A DNA stretch of 64,000 nt from an uncultured Planctomycetales bacterium (GTDB lineage Bacteria; Omnitrophota; Gorgyraeia; Zapsychrales; JANLHA01), in contig CAZAXH010000001.1 in the NCBI GenBank assembly GCA_964489065.1, positions 374,358 to 438,357 on the forward strand. The letters are read 5' to 3'. The position numbers and the translations under genes were made by a program. A model generated the notes under the pieces. It was not told the DNA's origin. It saw nothing but the letters and a program-made list of their open reading frames with translations, and did no database searches. Every line of letters starts with the position of its first letter. The stretch's first letter is position 1. Below, in pieces: positions 1 to 14,123 of this stretch.

Positions 1-1503
1 TCTATTTCCCGGTGGAAATGAATACCCTCGGTATCATGATAATGTTTGCGTTTCAACTTCATGGCGCACATGTCCTGAATATGTTGCCTTGTTTTCGTCC
101 CGAATTTTTGTTCAATCATGCTTAAATACCTCTCGCTAGTGTGATATTCCTGAAACGCCTTGTCCCGGAAACGCAGGACCTCCCCACTGGAAAGGCACTT
201 CGTCGGAAGGGGCAGAGTGTCCTCGCTGAACTGCGCGTATCCAGCCCATGTCTCCGGCAACGGGAGCCCCTGGGCGATAGCTTCATCATAAAGATGGGAA
301 CCCGGGTACGCCATGGCGCAATAAAAATTGCCGTATTCGCAGTTCAGCTCTTTGGCTAGATCCAGCGTTTCCCGCATTGTCTCGAGGTCATCCTCCGGCA
401 GGCCGAAAATAAAATTCCCGACAATATGGATCCCCTCAGCGTGGGTCATATCGATGACCTTCTTAATCTGCTCCTGGCCAAACCGCCCCTTGGAAACCCC
501 TTCCCGGACTTTTACACTCCCCGACTCAATACCGTAAGCGATCCAATTGATGCCTGCCTGCTTCATCTTTTTAAACATGGGCTCCTTCACCGTGTCGATC
601 CGGCCATAGACCCAGAAGTTCAAATCATGCCCCAGGGCGATCAGCCGGTCACACAACTCTTCGACATGGCTGGCTTTCAAGGCGAACATTTCATCCAGAA
701 TTTTAATATGCCTGACCCCGTAATGCCTGACCAGGAAATCCACTTCTTCCACGACCTTCTCCGGCGGACGATACCGGATCCCGGGGCCGCCGAAGATGCT
801 GTTAATACAACAAAAACTGCAATGAAACGGGCACCCCAGACTGGTATAGATGACCGCGTACGGCTGGCGTTTGCCCACATCATCAAACGCGTGCCAATTA
901 TGCGCACGGTATTTCTGCATCGGCAAAAGATCCCACGCCGGCATCGGAAGCAGCCCCAAATCCGGGATATTCGCCGCCCGGGGGTTGGAAACAATCTGTT
1001 CGCCTTTTCTATACCACAACCCGTCGACAGCAAAATCATCCCCAACGGCCCTCCCTGACTTTAACAAATTCAGCAATTCCACATACGTGGAGAAACCTTC
1101 CCCTTCGCATAAAAAATCCACGCTCTCTTCCTGCATCGTCTGCGCCGGTAATGACGAAGGATGAAGTCCTGAAATCGCCGTGGGACACACGGGCCGGACA
1201 CGCCTCATCTCTTTGAGACATTCTCCAGCGCCGGGCATATTGATGGTCGACGCGGACGGATTGGTGCCAGACACGACCACCGCCACTAAAAGAGGCTCAT
1301 ACGCCAGGGCCCGCCGGACGGTTTCCCGGGCGTCAAAATTTTCCACCTCGGCATCGATCACCTGCACCTGAAACCCCTGTTCCCGGAGGAAAGCCGCAGT
1401 CAAAATAATCCACAACGGCGGTTCCAAACCCGTGAAATCTCGGCTGAGGTCCTGATACGCTTTTTTTTGATTATTCGCTTTGATCAATACGATATCCGTC
1501 ATA
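1..1503 (-). CDS. B12-binding domain radical SAM protein (partial, 3' end beyond window start)
   Basis: Minus-strand reading frame opens at ATG ~1501-1503 and has no stop before coordinate 1, so it is absent from the ORF track. My translation gives MTDIVLIKANNQKKAYQDLSRDFTGLEPPLWIILTAAFLREQGFQVQVIDAE... (Rossmann-like B12-binding N-domain) followed by the radical-SAM cluster motif SLGCPFHCSFCCINS (CxxxCxxC) around residue ~225. All plus-strand track ORFs at 141-1371 are shadows of this gene. Confidence 0.7.
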
Positions 1504-1793
1504 TACGCTCCCCGATTCTTTCATGGAGCCCCCGCCCATGGGCGTGGTCCCGATTAACAATTCGCTTCGCAGAATGATCTGACGTCTTAACACGCGTGCG
1601 AACATCCCGCAACAGAAGACCTTGTCAACCTCCCGCCTATATCCACGGGCCTACCCATGGTCTTCTTCGCATGTGGACAAACCGCGTGGTCATTATATGT
1701 TGAATCCGCGAGACGGTCAAGACTGGCCCTGTCACCGGCCTCAAGATTTCTCCACGGCACAAAAGGCACAAGGCCTTCAAAAACCACCGGCGG

Positions 1794-2726
1794 TCAAATG
1801 TTGGCAAACTGGTTTCTCTTAATAATCTGGTATCCCTTAATCAACTCCCCGATACCGGCCTGCAGGGAAATGTCGGGGAAATAGCCGGTTTTCTCGATCT
1901 TTTCGTTGGAGACCACATAATCCCGTTTATCCGGATCTTCCCCAATGGCAGACTCCAAGACATAAAACTCCGGGACCTGCTTGCGGATTTCATCACATAA
2001 TTCTTTCTTGGTCAGATTCGCGTCGCTTAACCCGACGTTATAGGGCTCGCCCTTCATGGACTCATAATTTTTTAAACCATGAAGAAACGCCTTGGCCACA
2101 TCCCGGACATGGATAAAATTCCGTTTGAAGTGCGCCTCAAACAGAATAATAAACCGGTCATTGACCGCCCGGTAAGTAAAATCATTCACCAAAAGATCCA
2201 GGCGCATGCGAGGGCTGATCCCGAAGGCCGTTGCTAGCCGCAGCGTGATGCCCTTCCCGGACGACAGCACAGCATCTTCCGCCTGAACTTTAAGCCGGCC
2301 ATATAAGGAAATCGGGTTCAACGGCGTTTCTTCCGTGCAGAAACAATCTTTCTGCCCCACTCCGTATCCGCTGTTTGTCGTCGGAAGAATGATCATCTGA
2401 TCCCGGCCGCTCACATCCAAAACCATACGCACCGCGTCCACCAGCACCGTCTGGGCCGCCCAAGGGTCTTTTTTGCATAACGGCGCCCCCGTCAGGCAGG
2501 CCAAAGGAAAAACAGCGTCCGCGGATTTCATCAGGCGCTCCACGAGGGCCTTGTCCCGGGCGTCGCCCCGCACAACCGTGAGCCGGGGGTCGCAACAGCA
2601 GTCCAACAACGGCGTCTGGTTATACATAAAATTATCCAGGACCACAACCTCATGCCCTTCAGACAACAAACGCGGCACCAGGACCGAACCGATATAACCG
2701 GCTCCACCGGTCACCAATATTTTCAT
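1794..2726 (-). CDS. NAD-dependent epimerase/dehydratase (extended SDR family)
   Basis: N-terminal MKILVTGGAGYIGS Rossmann GxxGxxG; SDR-like length (310 aa); nucleotide-sugar gene neighbourhood. Confidence 0.8.
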   Translation of the reverse strand: MKILVTGGAGYIGSVLVPRLLSEGHEVVVLDNFMYNQTPLLDCCCDPRLTVVRGDARDKALVERLMKSADAVFPLACLTGAPLCKKDPWAAQTVLVDAVRMVLDVSGRDQMIILPTTNSGYGVGQKDCFCTEETPLNPISLYGRLKVQAEDAVLSSGKGITLRLATAFGISPRMRLDLLVNDFTYRAVNDRFIILFEAHFKRNFIHVRDVAKAFLHGLKNYESMKGEPYNVGLSDANLTKKELCDEIRKQVPEFYVLESAIGEDPDKRDYVVSNEKIEKTGYFPDISLQAGIGELIKGYQIIKRNQFANI

Positions 2727-2786
2727 GATTCTCTCCTCTGTATATATTTAATCCGTTCACCGCCCGCCGGAAATCCAAAAACACCT

Positions 2787-3827
2787 TCAGGCCATCAGGC
2801 GTTCCGCCGCGGCAACAATATCAGCCACCCCGGGATAAAAGGCTTCCTCCAAGACATAACTGGCCGGAGTCGGGATATCGGGAAGACACACCCGCACTGG
2901 TGGCTTTTTCAAAAAGCTAAAGCCTTTTTCCGCGGCCAGAGCCACGACTTCCGCCGCGAATCCGCTGGTTTTCCAGTCGACATCCGCGACCATCAATTTC
3001 CCGGTCTTCTCCAGCGACTTAAGAAAAATTTCTTCATCAAAAGGGCACAAAGTTCTGGGATCAATGACCTCCAGGCTGATCCCTTTCTTCTCCAGTTGTT
3101 CCGCCGCCCGGAGAGACTCAATCACCATATGCGATATCGCAAGTACCGTGATGTCTCGTCCCAGGCGTTTAATCGTGCCCTGGCCGAACGGAACCGCGTA
3201 AACATCCTGAGGGACATATCCCTTGTGCTGATAAAGCCAGCGGTGTTCTATAAACAACACCGGATTCGGGTCTGCCACGCTGGCGATAAAAAGGCCCTTG
3301 GCGTCATAAGCCGTGCTGGGCATCACAATTTTCAAGCCCGGCACATGAGTAAAAAGCCCGTGCAAAGACTGGGAATGCTGGGCGGCCGAGCCCCAACCCC
3401 GGCCGATGCAGGCCCGGATCACGAGAGGAATCGGCACCTGCCCCGAGAACATATAACACCATTTCGAGGCGGCGTTAACAATCTGGTCCATAGCCATCAT
3501 CAGGAAATCCGGACGGTTATGAATGGACACCGGCCGTAATCCTGCCATAGCCGACCCGATGGCCATGCCGATCGTCGCTTCTTCGGCTAAGGGGGTGTCA
3601 AAAATCCGCCGCGGCCCGTATTTTTCCCGTAACCCAAGCGTCGTCCCGAAAATCCCCCCGGGGTCATCAATCCCCTGCCCCATGGCATACACGCGGGGAT
3701 CCCGGACCAGAGCCTGATCCAACGCTTCACGCAGGGCTTCCCCGAAACTCAACTTGCGGACATCCTGCCCGGCATTTTCGTCGAAAACAGGCTCTTCCCG
3801 TTCAATTTGTAATTTTGTCCAAGGCAT
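2787..3827 (-). CDS. Thiamine-diphosphate-dependent 2-oxoacid dehydrogenase E1 component beta subunit (transketolase-like C-terminal)
   Basis: 346 aa; the SFGEALREALDQALVRDPRVYAMGQGIDD... region and the ...PSTAYDAKGLF... motif are typical of PDH/acetoin-DH E1-beta; 4-bp spacing to the alpha subunit gene. Confidence 0.8.
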   Translation of the reverse strand: MPWTKLQIEREEPVFDENAGQDVRKLSFGEALREALDQALVRDPRVYAMGQGIDDPGGIFGTTLGLREKYGPRRIFDTPLAEEATIGMAIGSAMAGLRPVSIHNRPDFLMMAMDQIVNAASKWCYMFSGQVPIPLVIRACIGRGWGSAAQHSQSLHGLFTHVPGLKIVMPSTAYDAKGLFIASVADPNPVLFIEHRWLYQHKGYVPQDVYAVPFGQGTIKRLGRDITVLAISHMVIESLRAAEQLEKKGISLEVIDPRTLCPFDEEIFLKSLEKTGKLMVADVDWKTSGFAAEVVALAAEKGFSFLKKPPVRVCLPDIPTPASYVLEEAFYPGVADIVAAAERLMA

Positions 3828-3830
3828 GGC

Positions 3831-4841
3831 TTATGCAAATAAATATTTCTTTAAATCCTCTTTCCGGGGAAGAGGCCCGTTTTGAGCATAATGGAACGCT
3901 TCTTCAATTTCCCCGTTCAGCATCCCGGTTATTTCCTGAATCACCGTTTCCTTCACCGCCCGCTGGGAACGCAGGACCTGTTCCAGGTCAGCCAAAGGAT
4001 CCCGCATCCAATCCGGTTTTAAATCCTGCGGGTTGCGGTATTGCTCCCGCAATGGGTCCCCGGCTCCCGCATGCGCCCGCCAGCGCTGCACGCAACATTC
4101 CAACACATAAGGCCCGCTTCCCTGCCGGGCATGATGAATGGCATCCCCGGCTTTCATAAAAACCTGTTCCGCATCCATTCCGTCAACTTTTACGGCGGGG
4201 ATATCAAAGGCCCGGGCGCGCATGGCGATATCCGGATTCGGCTGCCGGGCGGAAATATGCGAGCATACGGAATAAAAATTGTTTTCACAGACAAAAACAA
4301 CCGGCAGGCGTTTCAAAGCCGCCAGGCTCATGCTCTCAAAAAAGACCCCCTCCTCGCTGGCCGCATCCCCCAGGAAAGAGACCGCGACGGATTTCTTGTC
4401 CTGCATCATAAAGGCCAATGCCGCGCCCACTGCATGAGGGATGCTCCCCCCCACGATGGCGGAGGACCCCAAGTGGCCGACGGAAACATCAATCAAATGC
4501 ATCGACCCTCCCCGGCCTTTGGCGCACCCGGTTTCTTTGCAATACAACTCGGCGATCATCGCTTTAAGATCCCCGCCTTTGGCCAGATAATGGGCGTGAC
4601 TGCGGTGGCTACTAAAAATCAAATCCTCCGGATGCAAGTGCGCACACACACCCGCCGCGACAGCTTCCTCTCCCAGAGAAAGATGAATAGGCGTTTTCAT
4701 TTCATCCAGATGATATAAAGACTCAATCTTTAATTCAACCAGCCGGATCCGGGCCATGACCCGGTAAAGATTTAGAAGCTGTTCTGTGCCGATCTGGATG
4801 CAATCACCGTATGACTGATATTCATTCATGATGTCCGTCAA
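3831..4841 (-). CDS. Thiamine-diphosphate-dependent 2-oxoacid dehydrogenase E1 component alpha subunit
   Basis: 336 aa; TPP-binding [33 protein letters not shown] motif (GDG-x-N-like) characteristic of E1-alpha; overlaps the next gene by 4 bp. Confidence 0.8.
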
Positions 4842-5785
4842 ATCTTTTGTTGTTTAAACCATTCTATCGTTTCGGCGAGCCCTTTTTCCAGAGAAACCCG
4901 GGGGCTCCATTTCAGCAGGCGTCTGGCCAGAGAAATATCCGGCCGCCGCTGTTGAGGATCATCTTTAGGAAGCGATTTTTTAACGATCCTGGATTTTGAC
5001 CGTGATAATGTTAACACCAGTTGCGCGGCCTGCAAAATAGTAAACTCTTCAGGATTCCCGATATTAACCGGACTGGTATACTCCGAATGGAGAAGACGGA
5101 CAATGCCATCCAAAAGGTCAGTATAAAAGCAAAACGATCGGGTTTGCCTCCCGGTGCCGTAAACCGTCAGAGGCTTATTATGAAGCGCCTGAAAAATAAA
5201 GTTAGGAACGACACGCCCGTCCTTAACTCTCATCCGCGGCCCGTAAGTATTAAAAATCCGCACAATCCGCGTATCCAGCTTGTGGTAGCGATGATACGCC
5301 AGGGTCATGGCTTCCGCAAAGCGCTTGGCCTCGTCATAAACACCGCGCGGCCCGATCGGGTTGACATGCCCCCAGTATGTTTCCTTTTGCGGGTGTTCCT
5401 GAGGGTCCCCGTAAACCTCCGATGTCGAGGCCAGCAGGTACCGGGATTTTTTCAGTTTCGCCAATCCCAGCGTATTGTATGTCCCCAGGGATCCTACTTT
5501 CAGCGTAGGGATCGGGAACAGCAGGTAATCAATCGGACTCGCCGGGGAGGCAAAATGCAGGATATAATCAACGGGCCCCGGCAGCCGGATGTCCTTGGAG
5601 ATATCGTGGCGGATCAGCCGAAAATATTTATTGTTTTGCAGATGCCGGATATTTTGTTCGCTGCCGGTAATAAAGTTATCTACGCAAAAAACACGGCAGC
5701 CTTCCTCAAGCAAACGGTCACAGAGATGGCTTCCCAGGAACCCGGCGCCTCCCGTAACAACGGCAACTTTTTTCCTTGACCCCAT
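4838..5785 (-). CDS. UDP-glucuronate decarboxylase (UDP-xylose synthase-like, SDR)
   Basis: [20 protein letters not shown] Rossmann motif; YDEAKR catalytic Y-x-x-x-K; 315 aa; strong resemblance to UXS/ArnA-C-terminal decarboxylases. Confidence 0.85.
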
Positions 5786-5809
5786 GGTTGACGCTCCTTC
5801 GCTATAAAT

Positions 5810-7111
5810 TTACAGTTTTACCACCTTGGCACCGGGGCTGTTTTTGTAAACATTCCGGATATCAAAAATCAGTTTCGCATGACGCCGGATCAAAGCATAA
5901 TCAACGCCCGTATGGTCCGTCGCTATTACGGCACAATCACAGGCTTTGACCGCTTTGGGCGTTAACGGCACAGCGGTCAGATGGATGCCCGGGAAATCCA
6001 GATAAGGGATAATCGGATCATGATAATCGACCTGGCATCCGGCCTCCTGCAAAAGCTGGATCAATTTCAGCGGCGGCGACTTGCGGAGATCCTTAACGTC
6101 TTTTTTATATGTCACCCCCAGGATAAGAACCCGGATGCCCTTCAATTCCTTCCCTTTCCCGGCGAGGATATCCCTCAGGCGCTCAACGGCGTATTGCGTC
6201 ATATATGAATTCGTGTCGGCGGATATCTTAATATATTTCGAGCTGAACCCGTATTGTTTGGCCCTCCAGTACAAATACAACGGGTCATCCGGGATGCAAT
6301 GGCCGCCCACGCCCAGGCCGGGATAAAAAGGCATAAAGCCAAAGGGCTTGGTCTTCGCGGCCTCAATCACTTCCCATATGTCAATGCCCAGCTTATGGCA
6401 CATAATCGCCAGTTCGTTAATCCAGCCGATATTAATAATGCGAAAAGAATTTTCCAGAAGTTTAGTCATTTCCGCCGCTTCTGCCGTCGCCACGCAATGG
6501 ACTTTACATATAATTTTTTCATAAAGGGCCTTTGTCAACTGCCCACTTTCCGGCGTAACCCCGCCCACGACCTTGGTAATTTTAGTCACATCGTACCGGT
6601 CATTCCCGGGATCGATTCTTTCCGGAGAAAAAGCCAGGAAAAAGTCCTTCCCGGCCTTTAGCCCGGCCTTTTCGAGTTCCGGCAGAATTAGCTCTTTGGT
6701 GGTGCCCGGGTAGGTCGTGCTTTCCAAAACGATCAGCGTATCTTTCCGCAAATAACGCCGGATCGTCCGCACGGCATCAACAATATACGAGATATCCGGC
6801 GTGTACTTGCTCTTGAGCGGCGTCGGCACGCAAATGATCAGGACATCCATGTCCGAAATCACGGAAAAGTCCATCCCGGCCTCCAGCCGGCCACAGCGAA
6901 CAGCATCCGCGACGTCCTTGGTCGGGATATCAGAGATATAACTGACGCTGTTCTGGATATGCTCGACCCGGTCTTGGTCTTTGTCCAGCCCATGAACGCT
7001 ATATCCTTTTTTGGCGAAATTGACGGCCAAGGGAAGCCCCACATACCCCAAGCCCAAGACAGCAATTTTCGCCTTTTTGGAATCAATTTTCTTCTTCAAC
7101 ACAGTAGACAT
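5810..7111 (-). CDS. Nucleotide-sugar dehydrogenase (UDP-N-acetyl-D-mannosamine / UDP-GlcNAc 6-dehydrogenase family)
   Basis: 433 aa; N-terminal KIAVLGLGYVGLPLA NAD-binding motif, catalytic GGHCIP Cys region, UDP-binding C-terminal domain. Confidence 0.8.
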   Translation of the reverse strand: MSTVLKKKIDSKKAKIAVLGLGYVGLPLAVNFAKKGYSVHGLDKDQDRVEHIQNSVSYISDIPTKDVADAVRCGRLEAGMDFSVISDMDVLIICVPTPLKSKYTPDISYIVDAVRTIRRYLRKDTLIVLESTTYPGTTKELILPELEKAGLKAGKDFFLAFSPERIDPGNDRYDVTKITKVVGGVTPESGQLTKALYEKIICKVHCVATAEAAEMTKLLENSFRIINIGWINELAIMCHKLGIDIWEVIEAAKTKPFGFMPFYPGLGVGGHCIPDDPLYLYWRAKQYGFSSKYIKISADTNSYMTQYAVERLRDILAGKGKELKGIRVLILGVTYKKDVKDLRKSPPLKLIQLLQEAGCQVDYHDPIIPYLDFPGIHLTAVPLTPKAVKACDCAVIATDHTGVDYALIRRHAKLIFDIRNVYKNSPGAKVVKL

Positions 7112-7135
7112 CCCTCATCCCTCTCTTTCAATTTC

Positions 7136-8446
7136 CTAAACAGAAATACCCCGGCCGATGCCGTAGTATTCGTATCCCAAGTCGCTCAACCGGTCAGCAT
7201 GGTACAAATTCCTGCCGTCAAACACAATCGCTTGCCGCATTAAGGTTTTAAGTTTTTTGAAATTTAATTTTTTAAACTCCGCCCATTCGGTCAAAAGCAA
7301 CAAACAATCACAGCCTTTAGCTAAGGCGTAAGGATCTTTACAGAAAATCACCTTCTTCAGTGTTTTTTTGGCCTGCCCCATCGCCTGAGGATCATACGCT
7401 TTCACTTTGGCCCCTTCTTTCTGTAAGGCCGCGATAATATCCAAAGCCGGGGCGTTGCGCATATCATCCGTGTCAGGTTTAAAAGCCAGCCCCAGGACAC
7501 CGATCACCTTATCTTTCAGAATCCACAACTTATCCTCAATCAAGTGAACGAAAAGGGCCTTCTGGTCCTCATTCACCTGCCGGACTTCCTTCAGAAGATT
7601 GAACTGATACCCGCTCTTTTCACTCAGACGGATAAAGGCGTCCACATCCTTGGGAAAGCAACTGCCGCCGTACCCGATCCCGGCCCTCAAAAAACTTTTC
7701 CCTATTCTCTTGTCGTAGCCCATGCCTTCCGCCACTTTAAGGATGTCCGCGCCCACACGGTCACAGATCTGCGCCAGGGCGTTGGCGAAAGAAATTTTTG
7801 TGGCCAAGAACGAGTTAGACGCATGCTTGATGATTTCCGCGGAATTAATATTCGTCACCACGATATGCGGGTTTAAAGGCTGATAAATCTCACGTAAAAT
7901 TTTCTCCGCCCGGGCCGACTCAACTCCGATCACCACCCGGTCCGGGTTCATAAAATCCTCGATCGCCGAACCTTCCCGCAAAAATTCCGGGTTAGACGCC
8001 ACGTCAAAGGACACCGCTTTGCTGCGTTTAGGCAAGTTCAACCGGATGGTGCGTTCAATGCGTTTTCCTGTTTCCGCCGGCACCGTGGACTTTTCAATAA
8101 TTAACTTATAAGAGGTCATGCTGACGGCAATCTGCCGGGCGACATTTTCGACATACGTTAAATCCGCCTCGCCGTTTTTCTTGGACGGCGTCCCGACGGC
8201 GATAAAAATAACGTCTGTTTTCTGGGTGGCCTCCCGGACCGATCCGCAAAAACTTAAATGTTTCTTCTTCATGGCCTCACGCAGCAAGACATCCAGGCCG
8301 GGTTCATAAATAGGAACCTGGCCCGCTTTTAATTTTTTGATTTTTTCCTGATCACTATCCACGCAAAGGACCCGGTGCCCGATGGAGGACAAACACACTC
8401 CCGTCACCAGCCCCACGTAGCCACATCCGATAATTGAAATATTCAT
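7136..8446 (-). CDS. ugd: UDP-glucose 6-dehydrogenase
   Basis: NISIIGCGYVGLVTGVCL NAD-binding motif, GGSCFPKD catalytic Cys, 436 aa from the internal ATG (MNISII...) preceded by an AAAGGA RBS. The track ORF extends 8 codons further to 8470. Together with the decarboxylase this gives the established UDP-Glc to UDP-GlcA to UDP-Xyl route. Confidence 0.8.
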   Translation of the reverse strand: MNISIIGCGYVGLVTGVCLSSIGHRVLCVDSDQEKIKKLKAGQVPIYEPGLDVLLREAMKKKHLSFCGSVREATQKTDVIFIAVGTPSKKNGEADLTYVENVARQIAVSMTSYKLIIEKSTVPAETGKRIERTIRLNLPKRSKAVSFDVASNPEFLREGSAIEDFMNPDRVVIGVESARAEKILREIYQPLNPHIVVTNINSAEIIKHASNSFLATKISFANALAQICDRVGADILKVAEGMGYDKRIGKSFLRAGIGYGGSCFPKDVDAFIRLSEKSGYQFNLLKEVRQVNEDQKALFVHLIEDKLWILKDKVIGVLGLAFKPDTDDMRNAPALDIIAALQKEGAKVKAYDPQAMGQAKKTLKKVIFCKDPYALAKGCDCLLLLTEWAEFKKLNFKKLKTLMRQAIVFDGRNLYHADRLSDLGYEYYGIGRGISV

Positions 8447-8475
8447 AAAAATCCTTTCTTGATGTAACACCGCCC

Positions 8476-10644
8476 CTAATTCTGGGACCCGGCTTTTCGG
8501 CGGTTAAAACTCGTACCCACGTCAAATCCGATTTCAGGGAAAGCCTTCATCGTCATGACAACCCAAATTTCCGTGCCTTCCCCGCGGGTTTCGTTAAATG
8601 TCAGCGCCATCGTCCAAGCATGAAGGTCGCGCTCGAACCCGTATTGCTGCTCTTTCAAAGTCCCGGTATCGAGGTCAAACCGCTGATACACATTAAAAGT
8701 CCATTTCGGGTTCACCCTCCAGCCCACCTCCGTGGTGATCTGGTCATCCACCTCCCGGTTAAAACGCTTCCCAAATTTCCAGTACCACCGGGCGCCGTCA
8801 TCGTTAATATAAAAATCAACATTGGCGGTATCCAAATGCTCCTCAATCGTATCGTACCCGGCATCAAAAGACAGGGACCACCAATTGTAAGGGTTAAGTT
8901 CCAGATCCCCGGAAACGCTGTTAAAGCCCCCCTTCCCCGGATCCTCTTTTAAAAGAAAATTTGTCCCCACAATCATCCGGGCGAGATCAACGCTCTTGCC
9001 TCGCCGCTTGGTCTGCAGTTTGTTTTCCAGGTTAAAATTCAGGGAATGCGCCCGCGTCTGGGAGTCAACGCTGTCAAACTGGTCAAAGACGCTGTTATCC
9101 AAGGTGGGGTCATGGCGGTAAAGATAAGCCACCGACGGGGTCACAACGTGCCGCAACCGTTTAATGTCCAGCCCCCAGCGGTCAATGGTTGTTTCGTAAA
9201 TCTTATAGAATTTCGTGCTCAAATCCGACCCCGTGAAGAAGAGACCCCGGATGGAATTATAATCAGCCGGGTCTTTAGTCCGGCTGTAATATGTCTGCCG
9301 GGTGCCGACATAAGGCTTTAACTCGATAAAACTGACTTTCATAGGGTACGACAATTCGTTTTCTGAATCCATGCGCATGGTTTTGAGCGCATCTTCTGAC
9401 GGGCTGGCCGGCTTCAGCGAAAGGTTGGAGTAGGTAGAGGTCTCCTTAAAATAAAAACCGGTGTCCCCCAGTTCCTGGTTCGGCAAAGTATAACTGATTT
9501 CTGGAAGCCTCTCCACAATACTGGTAAAACGGTTCACCCGGACATCGCTCCTGAAACTGAACGTCCCGGCCGGGAAATTTCTGCTCAAAAGAAAATACGT
9601 AGAAGGGCTGGAATCCTCTTCATTATCTTTCTCAAAATAATCCTTTAAAAACGCCGCGTCACTGAGCCGGGAATACTGTAAGACCGCACTCGTATCCCGG
9701 TCTACGTTCCATTTATGCCGCCACTCTACTTTATAACGCTCCCGTTCAAGCGTGGGCTCGGTCCGTTCTTCAAAAAAATAATCCGCCTTGACGTCCCGTT
9801 CGTTCATATAATACGTGCGGAGAAGGCCGTAGCCGTAGCGGTCGGTTTTATAATCCGAGTCTACGCCCCACGCCACATCCTTTTTTTGCCGATAATCCAC
9901 GTGCACGGTCCCTTTAACCTTGGGAGACAATTCATACCGCCATCGGCTAAGCAAAAAAGGCCCCCAATCTTTATCATATCCCGGCGTGATTAAGAAAGCC
10001 GGTTTCCGTCCGGTCAAATCCTGTGTATATTTAGGAAGATAAAAGATTGGCACCTGCCCGATCTGCAGCCGCACATTTCTGGCCACGGCTTTGTCCCCCG
10101 GATAAATGTCCACCCTTCGGGACACAAAACGGAAATGAGGATCATCCAGATCACACGTTGTAATAAAGCCGCGATCAAGGACCATGTGATTCTCGTTGAT
10201 CCTGGTGACTTTCTCCCCGGCCCCGTAAAACGGTTCCGCGGCAATCCGTGTCTCTGCGAAATCGCCTTTCATGGTCAAAAAATTAAATTCCAGGCTGTCC
10301 CCGGTCAGCCGCTGGCTGCCGCGGATCAAAACAACATTACCTTCGGCATACACCATGTTGGATTGGTTGGAAAACTCCATGGAATCACAGAGCAGCGTCA
10401 CGTCCTCTTTTTTTACCGAGACGTTCCCTTCGGCGATGACTTTATTTTCGTGAATCAAATATTCCACCCGGTCTCCGTTAATTTCAACGGGGGAAACATC
10501 CTCTGCCGCAAGGGCGGACAAGGAAAAAGCAAACCCCACGGCCCAAACAATCACCCCACACCCCAATATCAAAACCGGGCTTTTTTTTATCCGCGGGACT
10601 TTTAAATAGACCAAAAACTTCATCCTTATTATCAACCGCCGCAA
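8476..10644 (-). CDS. lptD: LPS-assembly protein LptD (OstA family outer-membrane beta-barrel)
   Basis: 722 aa, signal peptide / TM at the N-terminus, OstA-like N-domain (INGDRVEYLIHENKVIAEGNVSVKKEDVTLLCDSMEF...AEGNVVLIRGSQRLTGDSLEFNF), aromatic-rich beta-barrel C-terminal half. Confidence 0.75.
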   Translation of the reverse strand: MRRLIIRMKFLVYLKVPRIKKSPVLILGCGVIVWAVGFAFSLSALAAEDVSPVEINGDRVEYLIHENKVIAEGNVSVKKEDVTLLCDSMEFSNQSNMVYAEGNVVLIRGSQRLTGDSLEFNFLTMKGDFAETRIAAEPFYGAGEKVTRINENHMVLDRGFITTCDLDDPHFRFVSRRVDIYPGDKAVARNVRLQIGQVPIFYLPKYTQDLTGRKPAFLITPGYDKDWGPFLLSRWRYELSPKVKGTVHVDYRQKKDVAWGVDSDYKTDRYGYGLLRTYYMNERDVKADYFFEERTEPTLERERYKVEWRHKWNVDRDTSAVLQYSRLSDAAFLKDYFEKDNEEDSSPSTYFLLSRNFPAGTFSFRSDVRVNRFTSIVERLPEISYTLPNQELGDTGFYFKETSTYSNLSLKPASPSEDALKTMRMDSENELSYPMKVSFIELKPYVGTRQTYYSRTKDPADYNSIRGLFFTGSDLSTKFYKIYETTIDRWGLDIKRLRHVVTPSVAYLYRHDPTLDNSVFDQFDSVDSQTRAHSLNFNLENKLQTKRRGKSVDLARMIVGTNFLLKEDPGKGGFNSVSGDLELNPYNWWSLSFDAGYDTIEEHLDTANVDFYINDDGARWYWKFGKRFNREVDDQITTEVGWRVNPKWTFNVYQRFDLDTGTLKEQQYGFERDLHAWTMALTFNETRGEGTEIWVVMTMKAFPEIGFDVGTSFNRRKAGSQN

Positions 10645-11571
10645 TTAAAAATCCGGGTTATCAACGAGTACGCGGGCCCCAAGCAGACCAGCATCATCCC
10701 CCAAATGGGCCCTCTTGATCTTAAACATCTCGCCCTGAACGGTCATCGCCCGGGCCCGAATCGTGTCAGAGATTGTTTTAAACAAAAACCGGTGAGCGTT
10801 TGCCACCCCTCCCCCGATAATGATCATCTTCGGATTAAGCAAATTAACGACTCCGGTTAAAGCATCCCCGATCATAACCGCCGTTTCGCGCCAAAACGCG
10901 AGGGCCTTCGGGTCTTTGCAGGAGGCCAAGCAGGAAACCTGTTCCAGGGTCATCGTTTTGTCCCGAAAGAGCTTCCTGGCGTTTTTCAGCAAAACGGTGT
11001 TCCCTACATAACGCTCGAAGCAGGCATATCCTCCGCAATTGCACGGGGGCCCTTTCCTTCCAAGCGGCATGTGCCCGATCTCTCCTGCCGCAAAACCCTC
11101 CCCCCGGTATAAGCGGTTATCCAAAATCAAACCGCTGCCGACACCCGTGCCCAACGTCATGCACACCAGATTCCGGCAACCGATTCCGGCGCCATATTTC
11201 CACTCGCCCAACGTAATCAGGTTCACATCATTCTCGATGCGTGCCGGCAGGCCCAACGTATCTTCCATCATGCGTTTCAAAGGAACATTCCGCCATCCGG
11301 GGATATTCGGCAAGATTTTCACCACCCCTTTTTCGGTGTCGATCAATCCCGGCAGGCCCATACCTACGCCCAGAATATCAGCCCGGCCACCCGGGCTCTT
11401 CTGAATAAGGCTCAAAACAGTATCCACAATAGCCGAAAACAGCAAACTCTTTTTTGATATATACTTACGGGTCTCCACGCGGGCTCTTGCAAGGATCTGT
11501 CCCTGCATATCAACAAGGCCGCATTTCGTGTTTGTACCGCCGACGTCAATTCCTATAATAATCTTATTCAT
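10645..11571 (-). CDS. ROK family sugar kinase (glucokinase-like)
   Basis: GIDVGGTNTKCGLV ATP-binding start, zinc motif CNCGGYAC typical of ROK kinases; 308 aa. Confidence 0.8.
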   Translation of the reverse strand: MNKIIIGIDVGGTNTKCGLVDMQGQILARARVETRKYISKKSLLFSAIVDTVLSLIQKSPGGRADILGVGMGLPGLIDTEKGVVKILPNIPGWRNVPLKRMMEDTLGLPARIENDVNLITLGEWKYGAGIGCRNLVCMTLGTGVGSGLILDNRLYRGEGFAAGEIGHMPLGRKGPPCNCGGYACFERYVGNTVLLKNARKLFRDKTMTLEQVSCLASCKDPKALAFWRETAVMIGDALTGVVNLLNPKMIIIGGGVANAHRFLFKTISDTIRARAMTVQGEMFKIKRAHLGDDAGLLGARVLVDNPDF

Positions 11572-11762
11572 AGTAATATTTTATAATAAGAAAAATTGCC
11601 TTCATTCTACACGATTTCTAAAAGGGATTCAAGGTGAAAAGCAAGGAAGGATAAATATCTCCGTGCCGATTATCCCTGGCAAACCAGGCGGGACAACCGG
11701 AAAAGGCGGCACCGAAAGACAAGGCCCCCGGCCAAATAACCGGAACCCGAGACTTTTCCGCG

Positions 11763-12806
11763 TCACTCTTTTTCATCATAAATCCCGAAAACACAAACCT
11801 TGTTCCGCCCCATTTTCTTGGCCCGGTAAAGCGCCCAGTCCGCCTTGTCGATCAACTCCGGCACGTTCTTCCCATCGGCCGGATAACAAGCAACACCGAT
11901 GCTGACCGTTAATCGTACTTTTGTATCATACGCTTTGACCACTGTTTTTTCAACCGCCTGCCGCATACGTTCCGCCACATATTGCGCCCCGCTGCCATCC
12001 GCATCCGGAAGCACCACACAAAATTCCTCCCCCCCATACCGTCCGACAATATCAATCTCACGGATATTCTCCTGAATAATCCCGGCCACATTTCTTAATA
12101 TCTGATCTCCGGTCAAATGTCCGTATTGATCATTAAAGTGTTTAAAATAATCCACATCAATCATCAGGAACGCAATCGGGATCTTCTGCGTACGAGCCCG
12201 GAGAAGCTCCTCCCGAAACCGCTCCAAAATATACCGGCGCGTATGCACCCCGGTTAAACTGTCTGTTATGGCCAGGGACTCCACCTGCCGGTACAAACGG
12301 TCCCGCCGAATCACCATGGCTAACTGATGCGCCAGGATTGTCGCTTTTTCAAGCCCTTCCGTAGAACATCCTTTAAGAAGCAAATACCCCAAAAGCTGCT
12401 GCTGAGCCATCAGGGGGATAACGGACACGCCTGGTGTTTCCCGGATATGATTCATATCTTCCGCCTCCGGGAGCACAAACCGGCAATCTTCGCAAGGGAC
12501 ACTGTCCGACAATTTACCCTTAAAAATACGGATGGAATCCTCTTCGCTGAAATTCTTGGTCAGCTCCTTCGTCATATCATACAAAGTAAAAATCTCCTGG
12601 GCTTCCTCGGCAAAATTCACTTTTTCCTCATCAATCTCCCTCTTTTTCTGCTGCAAAGAATTGAAATAACGCCGGGCTTCCAGGACATCGATCGTGCATT
12701 TATGCTGAAAAGACTCATGCATACGCCGCAGGACGAACAAAACAAAGGCAAAATATACCACGGCAGAAAACGACTCTATGTAAGTAAAAGGCATCATCAC
12801 GATCAC
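11763..12806 (-). CDS. Membrane-anchored diguanylate cyclase (GGDEF domain, with RxxD I-site)
   Basis: N-terminal TM helix; C-terminal GGDEF domain with REIDIVGRYGGEEFCVVLPD (I-site RxxD plus GGEEF active site). Confidence 0.85.
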   Translation of the reverse strand: MIVMMPFTYIESFSAVVYFAFVLFVLRRMHESFQHKCTIDVLEARRYFNSLQQKKREIDEEKVNFAEEAQEIFTLYDMTKELTKNFSEEDSIRIFKGKLSDSVPCEDCRFVLPEAEDMNHIRETPGVSVIPLMAQQQLLGYLLLKGCSTEGLEKATILAHQLAMVIRRDRLYRQVESLAITDSLTGVHTRRYILERFREELLRARTQKIPIAFLMIDVDYFKHFNDQYGHLTGDQILRNVAGIIQENIREIDIVGRYGGEEFCVVLPDADGSGAQYVAERMRQAVEKTVVKAYDTKVRLTVSIGVACYPADGKNVPELIDKADWALYRAKKMGRNKVCVFGIYDEKE

Positions 12807-12821
12807 CTCGATCCACAGAAT

Positions 12822-14123
12822 TTAAAGGGCCGAAGGGCAAACACGGTTCCGTCCCAGGGCCTTGGCCCTATACATGGCCATATCCGCCTTCCCCACAAGG
12901 TCTTCCTTCAGTTGAGCGTCATCCGGGAATGTTGCCACGCCAATGGAAACCGTCATATGGGTTTTTTCCCGGCGCAACACGACCGGATGATTTTGAACCC
13001 TTTCCCGGAATGTCTCCGCTAAAGCCACCGCTTCGTCCTTCGGGCAATCAGGCAACAGCACCGCGAACTCCTCCCCGCCATACCGGCAGATAAAATACTT
13101 CGGCGAGGCAAAAATCTCCCTCAAAATCTGACCTATCGTTTTCAGCACAATGTCCCCGGCCGGGTGGCCGTAGCGGTCATTATATTGTTTGAATTCATCG
13201 AGGTCCACCATCAGAAACGAAAGCGGTTGCTGGCGCTTCAGTTGCCTGGATATCTCCTGTCCGATCCTATCCAAAAAATGCCGCCGCAAAAACAACCCTG
13301 TCAGGCTGTCCCGGATGGCCAAGTCTTCAATCCGTTCATACAACTGGGCGTTTTCAACCGCCATGGCCCCCAGGTCTGCGATCGTGTTCAGTAGCCGGAC
13401 ATCCTCCGTCGTAAAATAATTCTCACGCGTGCTGTCCACCCGTAAAATACCGACCGCTTTGGCCCCCAGGCACAGCGGGACGCTCATCAAAGACCGGACC
13501 GCCCGGGAACGGTCTCCTTCCAGTTTATCCGCATCAAACCTGAAATCTGTCCTGGTATCCTCGATCAACAACGGCTTTAAAGTCTTAACAACCCACTGGT
13601 CATAGAGATCGCCTTTTTTCGCTTCAATGTTAACGCTCATTTCGCCTTTTTGAGAGGACGACAGGCCTAATTCACCGGTTCGGGAATGAAAAAGATACAA
13701 AATAACAGTCGCGTCCTTGTCTCCGAAAAATTTATTAACTTCCGAAGAGAGGACCGAGGATGTTTCCTGCAACGTAAAGCTGACACATAATTTCTCGGTA
13801 AGCCCCTTCAACTGGGAATAGTTCAGGATCTTCTTGCAATAAGATTCAATACTGATCCATTCCCGGTTCATGTCCTCCTCCAGAAGATTAGCCTTCTCCG
13901 TCATGTCCTGTTTCTGAAGGTCAACACTGGCGCGGCGATGCGTCATGTCTTGGTAAATGTAGAAGAGATACAGCAGGCTTGCCAACAGGCCCGCAACCAG
14001 GAGGTAAAAGAAAGCGGGATGATACAGAGCAGCATAGACAAAAAAACCTATAAGAGGCAGGGATACTGAGGTAAGATAAAAAAACCGTTGATTATATAAT
14101 TGTTTCTTCAGTGTCCTTATCAA
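12822..14123 (-). CDS. Membrane-anchored GAF-GGDEF diguanylate cyclase
   Basis: Two N-terminal TM helices, central GAF-like region, C-terminal RYGGEEFAVLLPD GGDEF active site; tandem with the preceding GGDEF gene. Confidence 0.85.
   Translation of the reverse strand: MIRTLKKQLYNQRFFYLTSVSLPLIGFFVYAALYHPAFFYLLVAGLLASLLYLFYIYQDMTHRRASVDLQKQDMTEKANLLEEDMNREWISIESYCKKILNYSQLKGLTEKLCVSFTLQETSSVLSSEVNKFFGDKDATVILYLFHSRTGELGLSSSQKGEMSVNIEAKKGDLYDQWVVKTLKPLLIEDTRTDFRFDADKLEGDRSRAVRSLMSVPLCLGAKAVGILRVDSTRENYFTTEDVRLLNTIADLGAMAVENAQLYERIEDLAIRDSLTGLFLRRHFLDRIGQEISRQLKRQQPLSFLMVDLDEFKQYNDRYGHPAGDIVLKTIGQILREIFASPKYFICRYGGEEFAVLLPDCPKDEAVALAETFRERVQNHPVVLRREKTHMTVSIGVATFPDDAQLKEDLVGKADMAMYRAKALGRNRVCPSAL

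Follow-up and report, generated by a model that had tools for sequence, protein, structure and literature searches.

At positions 1–8470 of a 64,000-nucleotide stretch of Omnitrophota DNA (contig CAZAXH010000001.1; hereafter the window), a single minus-strand gene row downstream of lptD encodes a two-subunit thiamine diphosphate (ThDP) enzyme resembling the E1 component of pyruvate dehydrogenase (PDH), an extended short-chain dehydrogenase/reductase (SDR), and a B12-binding radical S-adenosylmethionine (SAM) enzyme, together with three further nucleotide-sugar genes. We propose that the E1 pair, the SDR (a C4-dehydrogenase), and the radical SAM enzyme belong to a widespread pathway by which a 3-deoxy-heptose with a two-carbon branch would be made for the cell envelope, a reading to which we give an even chance of being right. 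More tentatively, we suggest an envelope pathway spanning phyla (Omnitrophota, Planctomycetota, Desulfobacterota, Elusimicrobiota, Chloroflexota, the Candidate Phyla Radiation [CPR], and some archaea), in which GDP-heptose is converted to its 3-deoxy-4-keto form, C2-branched by interchangeable E1 or transketolase enzymes, and remodeled by an unclassified family of B12 radical SAM enzymes. All seven genes singled out in the original prediction for this DNA were confirmed at the positions given in Table 1. The cluster is cut by the window edge, so positions 1–8470 hold only part of it.

The radical SAM family was traced with an alignment-based scan of one genome per species, which matched at least 573 species genomes from many anaerobic bacterial and archaeal phyla. 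The best 80 of these matches (50%–89% identity) came from Omnitrophota, Elusimicrobiota, Planctomycetota, Desulfobacterota, Nitrospirota, Chloroflexota, KSB1, Margulisiibacteriota, a CPR member, a Nanoarchaeote, and a Methanoperedenaceae archaeon, with one cultured strain among them, the deltaproteobacterium NaphS2 (L083). Homologous stretches (loci numbered from L001) were fetched and their gene content was read from called open reading frames (ORFs), which were searched with the proteins of the window and of L001–L003, the remaining ORFs being clustered. Domains were called with Pfam, and NCBIfam scores were judged against curated cut-offs. Co-occurrence was counted in 40 loci anchored on the radical SAM gene and extending at least 7 kb to either side of it. 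A ThDP enzyme of either type was present in 38 of the 40, as an E1 alpha/beta pair in 22 and as a split transketolase in 16, and the two types never occurred together (0/40). The other frequent members were an HddA-like kinase and a DegT-family protein of the His type described below (34/40 each), a Cj1427-like SDR (33/40), a nucleoside triphosphate (NTP) transferase (32/40), and an Fcl-like (GDP-fucose-synthase-like) protein scoring 421 bits to GDP-fucose synthase (30/40); GmhA (8/40) and a GmhB fusion (5/40) were less common. On the radical SAM tree, E1-type loci are scattered among transketolase-type ones, which indicates that the two enzymes have repeatedly displaced each other, as non-orthologs, in one functional slot.

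A reverse census, made by a metagenome scan anchored on E1 beta, gave 19 well-flanked loci. The heptose-type core was found in 13 of these, with the radical SAM gene in 10 of the 13 and missing from three (L110, L133, and L147); the other 6 of the 19 were different cluster types. The radical SAM enzyme is thus nearly always found with a ThDP partner and the reverse does not hold. Because 3 of the 13 E1 heptose cores lack the radical SAM gene, the branching core can stand alone, and the radical SAM enzyme is most simply read as an add-on that acts after the ThDP step or on its product. A role for the radical SAM enzyme as supplier of the ThDP acceptor was considered and is disfavored, since E1-type cores exist without it. 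Three loci show only a transketolase C-terminal-half gene (309–377 aa) between the C4-dehydrogenase and the radical SAM gene (L053, 8887–9978; L062, 9058–9987; L081, 8836–9969); no N-terminal-half gene was among the ORF calls of these three loci, where it may be missed, elsewhere, or absent.

The SDR had been described as an epimerase/dehydratase; the SDR fold held, and the generic epimerase/dehydratase assignment gave way to a Cj1427-type C4-dehydrogenase. The protein matches PDB 6vo6/6vo8 with 406 bits (E 7e-121) at 57% identity across 308 ungapped residues, the next-best PDB match reaching 78 bits only. The link from 6vo6 to Cj1427 comes from a published primer, Cj1427cF918, which encodes RAFKMMKV, the peptide at the C-terminus of 6vo6. 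Cj1427 is the GDP-heptose C4-dehydrogenase of Campylobacter jejuni, with a tightly bound NADH that is recycled by alpha-ketoglutarate in a ping-pong mechanism (PMC10680097), and in vitro, together with the HS:5 C3-dehydratase, it yields GDP-D-glycero-4-keto-3-deoxy-heptose (PMC10680097; PMC7949155). By this likeness, the window SDR would oxidize C4 of a nucleoside diphosphate (NDP)-heptose. An exact-sequence look-up of the window SDR gave no match.

The genes that continue the row past the window start were read from relatives, chiefly L084, an activated-sludge assembly contig with 94.7% DNA identity to window positions 1–12000 and the same gene order. The radical SAM gene is followed there by genes for a GHMP kinase, an NTP transferase, a DegT-family protein, glycosyltransferases of families GT4 and GT2, and a TPR/polysaccharide deacetylase; L001, L004, and L005 (radical SAM identity 84%–89%) share this arrangement. 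The glycosyltransferases that the original prediction had suggested looking for beyond the window start are therefore present as GT4 and GT2 in all four relatives. The kinase has heptose kinases as its nearest solved structures (WcbL, 3k85, and 4n3o) and HddA as its best NCBIfam model, and the nucleotidyltransferase best matches mannose-1-phosphate guanylyltransferase and HddC, below cut-off. Overall, GDP-perosamine synthase is the nearest match of the DegT protein, which has a His at the position of the catalytic Lys186 (FSLYAAHIVTS; the stretch in L084 reads FSLYAAHIVTSIEGG). This His is present in every cluster-associated DegT, and where this class of DegT is missing, a ColD/E1-like one (FSFYFAHHMST) takes its place. 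The Lys-to-His exchange is a signature of ColD/E1 sugar 3-dehydratases, and a 3-dehydratase role is predicted here. The alternative of a 4-aminotransferase leading to a 4-amino-heptose was rejected on account of the invariant exchange.

Taken together, the likely substrate of the module is a GDP-heptose, not a UDP-pentose, because the radical SAM enzyme travels with the ThDP enzyme, the Cj1427-like dehydrogenase, the heptose-type kinase, the nucleotidyltransferase, and the His-type DegT, and UXS is rare. An envelope glycan is a plausible destination, given lptD upstream and GT4, GT2, and deacetylase genes downstream in relatives, which agrees with the lipopolysaccharide (LPS) or capsule proposed earlier. 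The module with both radical SAM and ThDP enzymes was also observed in Nanoarchaeota (L018), Methanoperedenaceae (L039), and the CPR group WWE3 (L068); given these archaeal and CPR carriers, its product cannot be LPS-specific.

The E1 alpha subunit retains the ThDP motif (GDAA...ENN) and the His aligned to human His263. The best family matches of the pair are PDH E1 alpha and beta models, and an alignment of the alpha subunit with human PDH E1 alpha gives E 6e-46; neither subunit passed a PDH cut-off (alpha, 297.7 against 393.85 in NCBIfam; beta, 305.7 against 321 for the PDH E1 beta subfamily model and 292.5 against 454 for another). The original prediction had taken the pair to lack E2 and E3 partners and had pointed to two-carbon branching of keto-sugars as a possible role. 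We found no E2/E3 signature motifs across the 64-kb window and no E2/E3 within about 10 kb past the window start in L084 and L001, in agreement with the first point. The second fits the conserved setting: a role as a keto-sugar C2-branching enzyme is suggested because the E1 pair always lies in nucleotide-sugar clusters across phyla and is replaceable there by a split transketolase.

The E1 family also occurs in a second recurrent cluster lacking the radical SAM gene, which combines ManC, FUT8-like glycosyltransferases, E1 alpha/beta, an SDR, an APH-type kinase, an Fcl-like protein, and GDP-mannose 4,6-dehydratase (L150, 8658–19747; also L115, L121–L123, L135, L141, L153, and L155). This cluster looks like a GDP-6-deoxyhexose branching pathway, and GDP-keto-sugar chemistry is the consistent setting of the E1 family. 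In L003 (positions 1–1146) and L030, a Chloroflexota and a Planctomycetota locus, an ORF for an HMGL-like aldolase/synthase lies just before E1 alpha. It recalls ErwI, a pyruvate aldolase that provides extended 2-oxo-acid donors for erwiniose, and hints that branches longer than C2 may be formed in some lineages.

The radical SAM enzyme had been assigned to the cobalamin-dependent class B, with C-methylation as its expected chemistry. The class B features stood: the B12-binding domain is followed by a CxxxCxxC cluster motif (C224/C228/C231), and among 49 sequences of the family these three cysteines as well as G112, H114, S116, D129, G134, and E135 (GxHxS and D...GEG) are invariant. Membership of a methyltransferase family did not. 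None of the curated NCBIfam models tried was passed, the top ones being HpnJ (155 against 577.6) and BchE (138 against 481), both far below cut-off, and the methyltransferase models scored 125.8 against 575 (Sden_1168), 86.5 against 281.85 (TIGR03975), and 74 against 600 (PhpK). HpnJ and BchE are not methyltransferases. An AlphaFold model (pLDDT 93) retrieved AprD4 as the top Foldseek match (TM 0.71/0.78, 20% identity), then TsrM, MgmA, CysS, and OxsB, and AprD4, a sugar 1,2-diol dehydratase, is the best PDB match by sequence as well as by fold. Radical SAM tailoring of sugars has precedents in AprD4, acting on paromamine, and GenK, acting on gentamicin. C-methylation is thus a possible activity that none of the tests run favored. 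In many loci (L022, L035, L046, L020, L030, L092, and others), one to four further B12/radical SAM paralogs (about 60–200 bits to the query) lie beside the module, and L026 has two copies of the family proper (430 and 605 bits); these paralogs and the duplicate suggest serial radical SAM tailoring.

The UDP-xylose route of the original prediction is genuine in itself. Ugd is of the TuaD type, and UXS aligns full-length (residues 4–313, E 2e-108) with human UXS1 (PDB 4gll and 2b69), so that UDP-GlcA and then UDP-Xyl can be assigned as products, with the qualification that the ratio of UDP-Xyl to the 4-keto product is not readable from sequence (PMC10338323). The second dehydrogenase predicted to be of the UDP-HexNAc type is present as well; its best models are of the UDP-ManNAc dehydrogenase and TviB types, all below cut-off, and no equivalog model was passed. 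A tie between this route and the E1, SDR, and radical SAM genes is not supported. True UXS was found in only about nine loci, all with an Omnitrophota-type lptD–Ugd–(dehydrogenase)–UXS block, and Ugd in 6 of the 40. The block with both dehydrogenases recurs in L001, L004, L005, L007, L011, L031, L053, L062, L084, and L085, and UXS stands immediately before the E1 genes in L001, L004, L005, L007, L011, and L084–L087. In L053 and L062, the lptD–Ugd–UXS block is followed instead by the Fcl-like gene, the C4-dehydrogenase, and a transketolase subunit, and the adjacency of UXS and ThDP genes is not conserved. The UDP-xylose genes are no more than lineage-specific neighbors of the module. We read the original prediction as right on the kind of chemistry and wrong on the precursor route to which it was tied.

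We therefore describe positions 1–8470 as the probable promoter-proximal part of an Omnitrophota envelope-glycan locus in which two units are joined. The lptD-linked unit (Ugd, the UDP-HexNAc-type 6-dehydrogenase, and UXS) would be the source of UDP-GlcA, UDP-Xyl, and a HexNAc uronic acid. The cross-phylum module would comprise the E1 pair, the C4-dehydrogenase, and the radical SAM enzyme in the window, with the kinase, transferase, His-type DegT, GT4, GT2, and deacetylase beyond it. In the proposed pathway, a heptose phosphate would be activated to an NDP-heptose, probably GDP-heptose, as the family resemblance of the kinase and transferase suggests. The SDR would then oxidize C4 to the ketone, as shown for Cj1427, and the His-type DegT would remove the 3-hydroxyl group to give a 3-deoxy-4-keto-heptose. 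The E1 pair is predicted to decarboxylate pyruvate and to transfer the acetyl equivalent onto the C4 ketone, forming a 4-C-acetyl tertiary alcohol; in transketolase-type loci, hydroxyacetyl would take the place of acetyl. The radical SAM enzyme would tailor the branched sugar, with C-methylation as a default guess and radical dehydration or rearrangement equally open, and GT4 and GT2 would place the product in LPS or another envelope glycan. Oxidation and 3-deoxygenation draw on close or diagnostic sequence features, and the branching step on gene context and the alpha-KADH2 and YerE precedents discussed below.

Several observations weigh against this proposal. The module is known from genes alone in all its members, and the genes past the window start were seen in relatives only, not in the window. 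Both the kinase (157 against a cut-off of 600 for HddA) and the transferase (145 against 300 for HddC) score far below these models, and heptose and GDP are for this reason moieties that we infer. The nearest relatives of the radical SAM enzyme are non-methylating. The Fcl-like epimerase/reductase of 30 of the 40 loci could reduce C4, as in colitose synthesis, leaving no ketone for branching; in window-type loci, branching would be the only dedicated fate of the C4 ketone, because no Fcl-like reductase occurs there. Lastly, the start of E1 alpha overlaps the stop of UXS by 4 nt (4838–4841), which suggests UDP-4-keto-xylose as a possible acceptor. From this overlap, and from the position of UXS directly before E1 in the loci listed above, a eurekanate-like route can be drawn in which a UXS-type decarboxylase releases UDP-4-keto-xylose, the E1 pair acetylates its C4 to give a branched pentose, and the SDR and radical SAM enzyme tailor the product. 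Everninomicin offers a parallel, in that EvdS6 releases UDP-4-keto-xylose and the E1-like EvdU5/EvdS3 are proposed to acetylate it (PMC10338323). We consider this route unlikely: UXS is confined to about nine loci of one lineage-specific arrangement and varies in position (L053 and L062), the window UXS has the reducing human UXS1 as its nearest match, and the module has its own keto-sugar-forming enzymes.

A colitose-like 3-deoxy-heptose with an extended side chain is another doubtful candidate. Here the C4-dehydrogenase, the 3-dehydratase, and the Fcl-like protein would make GDP-3-deoxy-heptose, the radical SAM enzyme would act as an AprD4-like diol dehydratase on the exocyclic C6–C7 diol, and the ThDP enzyme would attach C2 at the carbonyl so formed, the product being a linear higher-carbon sugar in place of one branched at C4. 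The match of the radical SAM enzyme to AprD4 in sequence and fold, the frequency of the Fcl-like gene, and the ThDP partner in 38 of the 40 loci all agree with it. Against it stand the E1-type heptose modules without a radical SAM gene (L110, L133, and L147), in which the ThDP enzyme is independent of any carbonyl made by radical SAM chemistry, and the window-type loci without an Fcl-like gene; moreover, the N-terminal domain is a genuine B12-binding domain with invariant GxHxS and GEG motifs, whereas AprD4 is not known to use cobalamin. In many anaerobes and archaea, split transketolases serve housekeeping functions, and the ThDP enzyme might instead act upstream without any branching, making a sugar-phosphate precursor (sedoheptulose 7-phosphate by transketolase, or the product of a DXS-like condensation), as would suit those loci in which GmhA adjoins the ThDP genes (such as L013, L103, and L125). 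This is highly improbable, however, as E1-type enzymes decarboxylate 2-oxo acids and cannot yield sedoheptulose 7-phosphate, yet they share a slot with transketolases through repeated swaps, and a 1-deoxy-ketose product could not be isomerized to an aldose by GmhA. Reading the pair as an ordinary E1 of pyruvate or acetoin dehydrogenase, placed in a sugar cluster by chance, would agree with PDH E1 alpha and beta models as best family matches, with the alignment to human PDH E1 alpha, and with the retained catalytic His and ThDP motif; the probability of this reading is nonetheless very small, with both subunits below the curated cut-offs, no E2/E3 in the regions searched, and an association with sugar genes that dozens of loci in many phyla share. 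The 4-C-branched 3-deoxy-heptose pathway remains the reading that we put forward.

The features of the row are collected in Table 1.

Table 1. Features at the start of the window, with positions on the window.
Feature	Positions	Strand	Evidence or remark
B12-binding radical SAM enzyme	3–1502	minus	PF02310, 60 bits, residues 23–143; PF04055, 68 bits, residues 219–383
Sigma-70-like promoter, TTGACC-17 nt-TATAAT	1692–1720	minus	in the 290-nt gap between SDR and radical SAM genes (1503–1793)
Cj1427-type NDP-heptose C4-dehydrogenase (extended SDR), putative	1794–2726	minus	similarity to PDB 6vo6
ThDP enzyme, beta subunit (E1 beta-like)	2787–3827	minus	PF02779 (Transket_pyr) and PF02780 (Transketolase_C)
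ThDP enzyme, alpha subunit (E1 alpha-like)	3831–4841	minus	PF00676 (E1_dh), 205 bits
UDP-glucuronate decarboxylase (UXS)	4838–5785	minus	365 bits to human UXS1
NDP-sugar 6-dehydrogenase, UDP-HexNAc type (WecC/TviB-like)	5810–7111	minus	TIGR03026, 427 bits
UDP-glucose 6-dehydrogenase (Ugd)	7136–8470	minus	TuaD-type model, 548 bits; TIGR03026, 479 bits
LptD-like outer-membrane LPS assembly protein, head of the row	8476–10644	minus	PF04453, PF19838, PF03968
ROK kinase, preceding the LptD-like gene	10645–11571	minus	

The radical SAM reading frame has 500 aa in the window, its last codon and stop lying past the window start (the ortholog in L084 has 501 aa). Homologs of GmhA, GmhB, the kinase, the transferase, and DegT were searched for inside the window and none was found. 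The promoter-like site occurs once in the window, where none is expected by chance, and is conserved in the corresponding gap of L001, L004, and L005; on account of this conserved site, the radical SAM, kinase, transferase, DegT, and glycosyltransferase genes may form a separate transcription unit. In the window, the 5′ leader of the radical SAM gene contains an extra insert of about 140 nt that is missing from relatives and has no further copy in the window or the fetched loci. The 190-nt leader has a strong predicted hairpin (−66.5 kcal/mol) without an Rfam match, and Rfam showed no cobalamin riboswitch upstream of the gene. No Rfam family matched anywhere in the window at gathering score; the sole weak match in positions 1–12000 was to CcsR1, on the plus strand at 5717–5799, antisense within the UXS gene (24 bits against a gathering score of 65), and it was taken as chance. 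Directly upstream of the ROK kinase/lptD row lie two tandem genes on the minus strand (11763–12806 and 12822–14123) for proteins with GGEEF (diguanylate cyclase) motifs.

Each enzyme type found here has a precedent, and the combination of heptose-type activation, a Cj1427-like oxidase, a new His-DegT lineage, E1 or transketolase branching enzymes, and an orphan B12 radical SAM family in an lptD-linked locus and across many phyla is not described in the literature that we found. We know of no radical SAM step in primary cell-envelope nucleotide-sugar biosynthesis; literature searches brought up neither such a step nor an earlier account of this gene combination. Sugar branching by E1 pairs and split transketolases has so far been known from actinomycete antibiotic clusters only, and for transketolases it is merely proposed (PMC12247030), whereas the locus described here shows both types sharing one slot of a conserved, probably heptose-based module in hundreds of environmental species. 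If the proposal is true, a new family of surface sugars is predicted in poorly known phyla, and natural E1 and transketolase pairs become available for testing tertiary-alcohol-forming carboligation. The substrates made for the C. jejuni enzymes would then also offer a tractable in vitro system to assign a function to a large orphan radical SAM family. Should the reading across phyla hold, it would amount to an undescribed class of branched higher-carbon sugars on the surfaces of uncultivated anaerobes.

Among known systems, E1 pairs of the alpha-KADH2 family use pyruvate to form the C2 branches of aldgamycin, paulomycin, avilamycin, kosinostatin, and kibdelomycin, as shown in vitro for KbDH-alpha/beta, and hydroxyacetyl transfer by split-gene transketolases has been proposed for miharamycin and amipurimycin (PMC12247030; PMC4753412). 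The window pair resembles AviB1/B2, Pau11/12, EvdU5/S3, the aldgamycin pair, and KbDH-alpha/beta in architecture and context, being a heterodimeric E1 without E2/E3 among NDP-keto-sugar genes, and acetyl transfer from pyruvate is predicted for it. However, the known enzymes come from actinobacterial secondary-metabolite clusters, and their substrates are TDP- or UDP-deoxyhexoses or pentoses, whereas the pair here lies in an lptD-linked envelope locus. Its module is found in some archaea as well as in many anaerobic phyla that are uncultivated, has heptose-type activation genes, and usually includes a B12 radical SAM enzyme as a partner. The 13 split transketolases listed previously are all from Streptomycetes and uncharacterized (PMC12247030); N- and C-terminal halves of this kind occupy the E1 slot in 16 of the 40 relatives, the window itself being of the E1 type. 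A heptose link for miharamycin was dropped, miharamycin being UDP-GlcA-based.

In yersiniose, erwiniose, and caryophyllose, acyl branching by ThDP enzymes takes place on 3-deoxy-4-keto nucleotide sugars (PMC9306805). The YerE/YerF pathway of yersiniose and the ErwE/MygE enzymes share with the predicted pathway the formation of a 4-keto group, 3-deoxygenation by a His-type pyridoxal/pyridoxamine phosphate enzyme, and ThDP-dependent acyl addition at C4, with an LPS sugar as the end point. The YerE-type enzymes differ in being single-chain and acetolactate-synthase-like and in acting on CDP-3,6-dideoxy-4-keto-glucose, while the locus here has an E1 pair or a split transketolase, and its sugar is probably a GDP-heptose with C6 and C7 kept. 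The radical SAM enzyme shares with class B enzymes and AprD4 a B12-type Rossmann domain followed by a radical SAM barrel, and its model superposes on AprD4, TsrM, MgmA, CysS, and OxsB; it differs from them in having at most 20% identity to any solved member and in passing no curated family model.

A known counterpart of the early steps is the capsular heptose pathway of C. jejuni (HddA, HddC, Cj1427/MlghA, the HS:5 C3-dehydratase, and Fcl-like reductases), which the module resembles in its SDR, heptose-type GHMP kinase, HddC-like transferase, and His-type DegT, and, in most relatives, in the Fcl-like protein. Neither a ThDP enzyme nor a radical SAM enzyme is part of the C. jejuni pathway. The His-type DegT here forms a separate lineage nearest to GDP-perosamine synthase, and the kinase and transferase are only about 30% related to characterized ones. 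The C. jejuni enzymes have nevertheless made GDP-3-deoxy-4-keto-heptose in vitro, the very intermediate that is predicted here.

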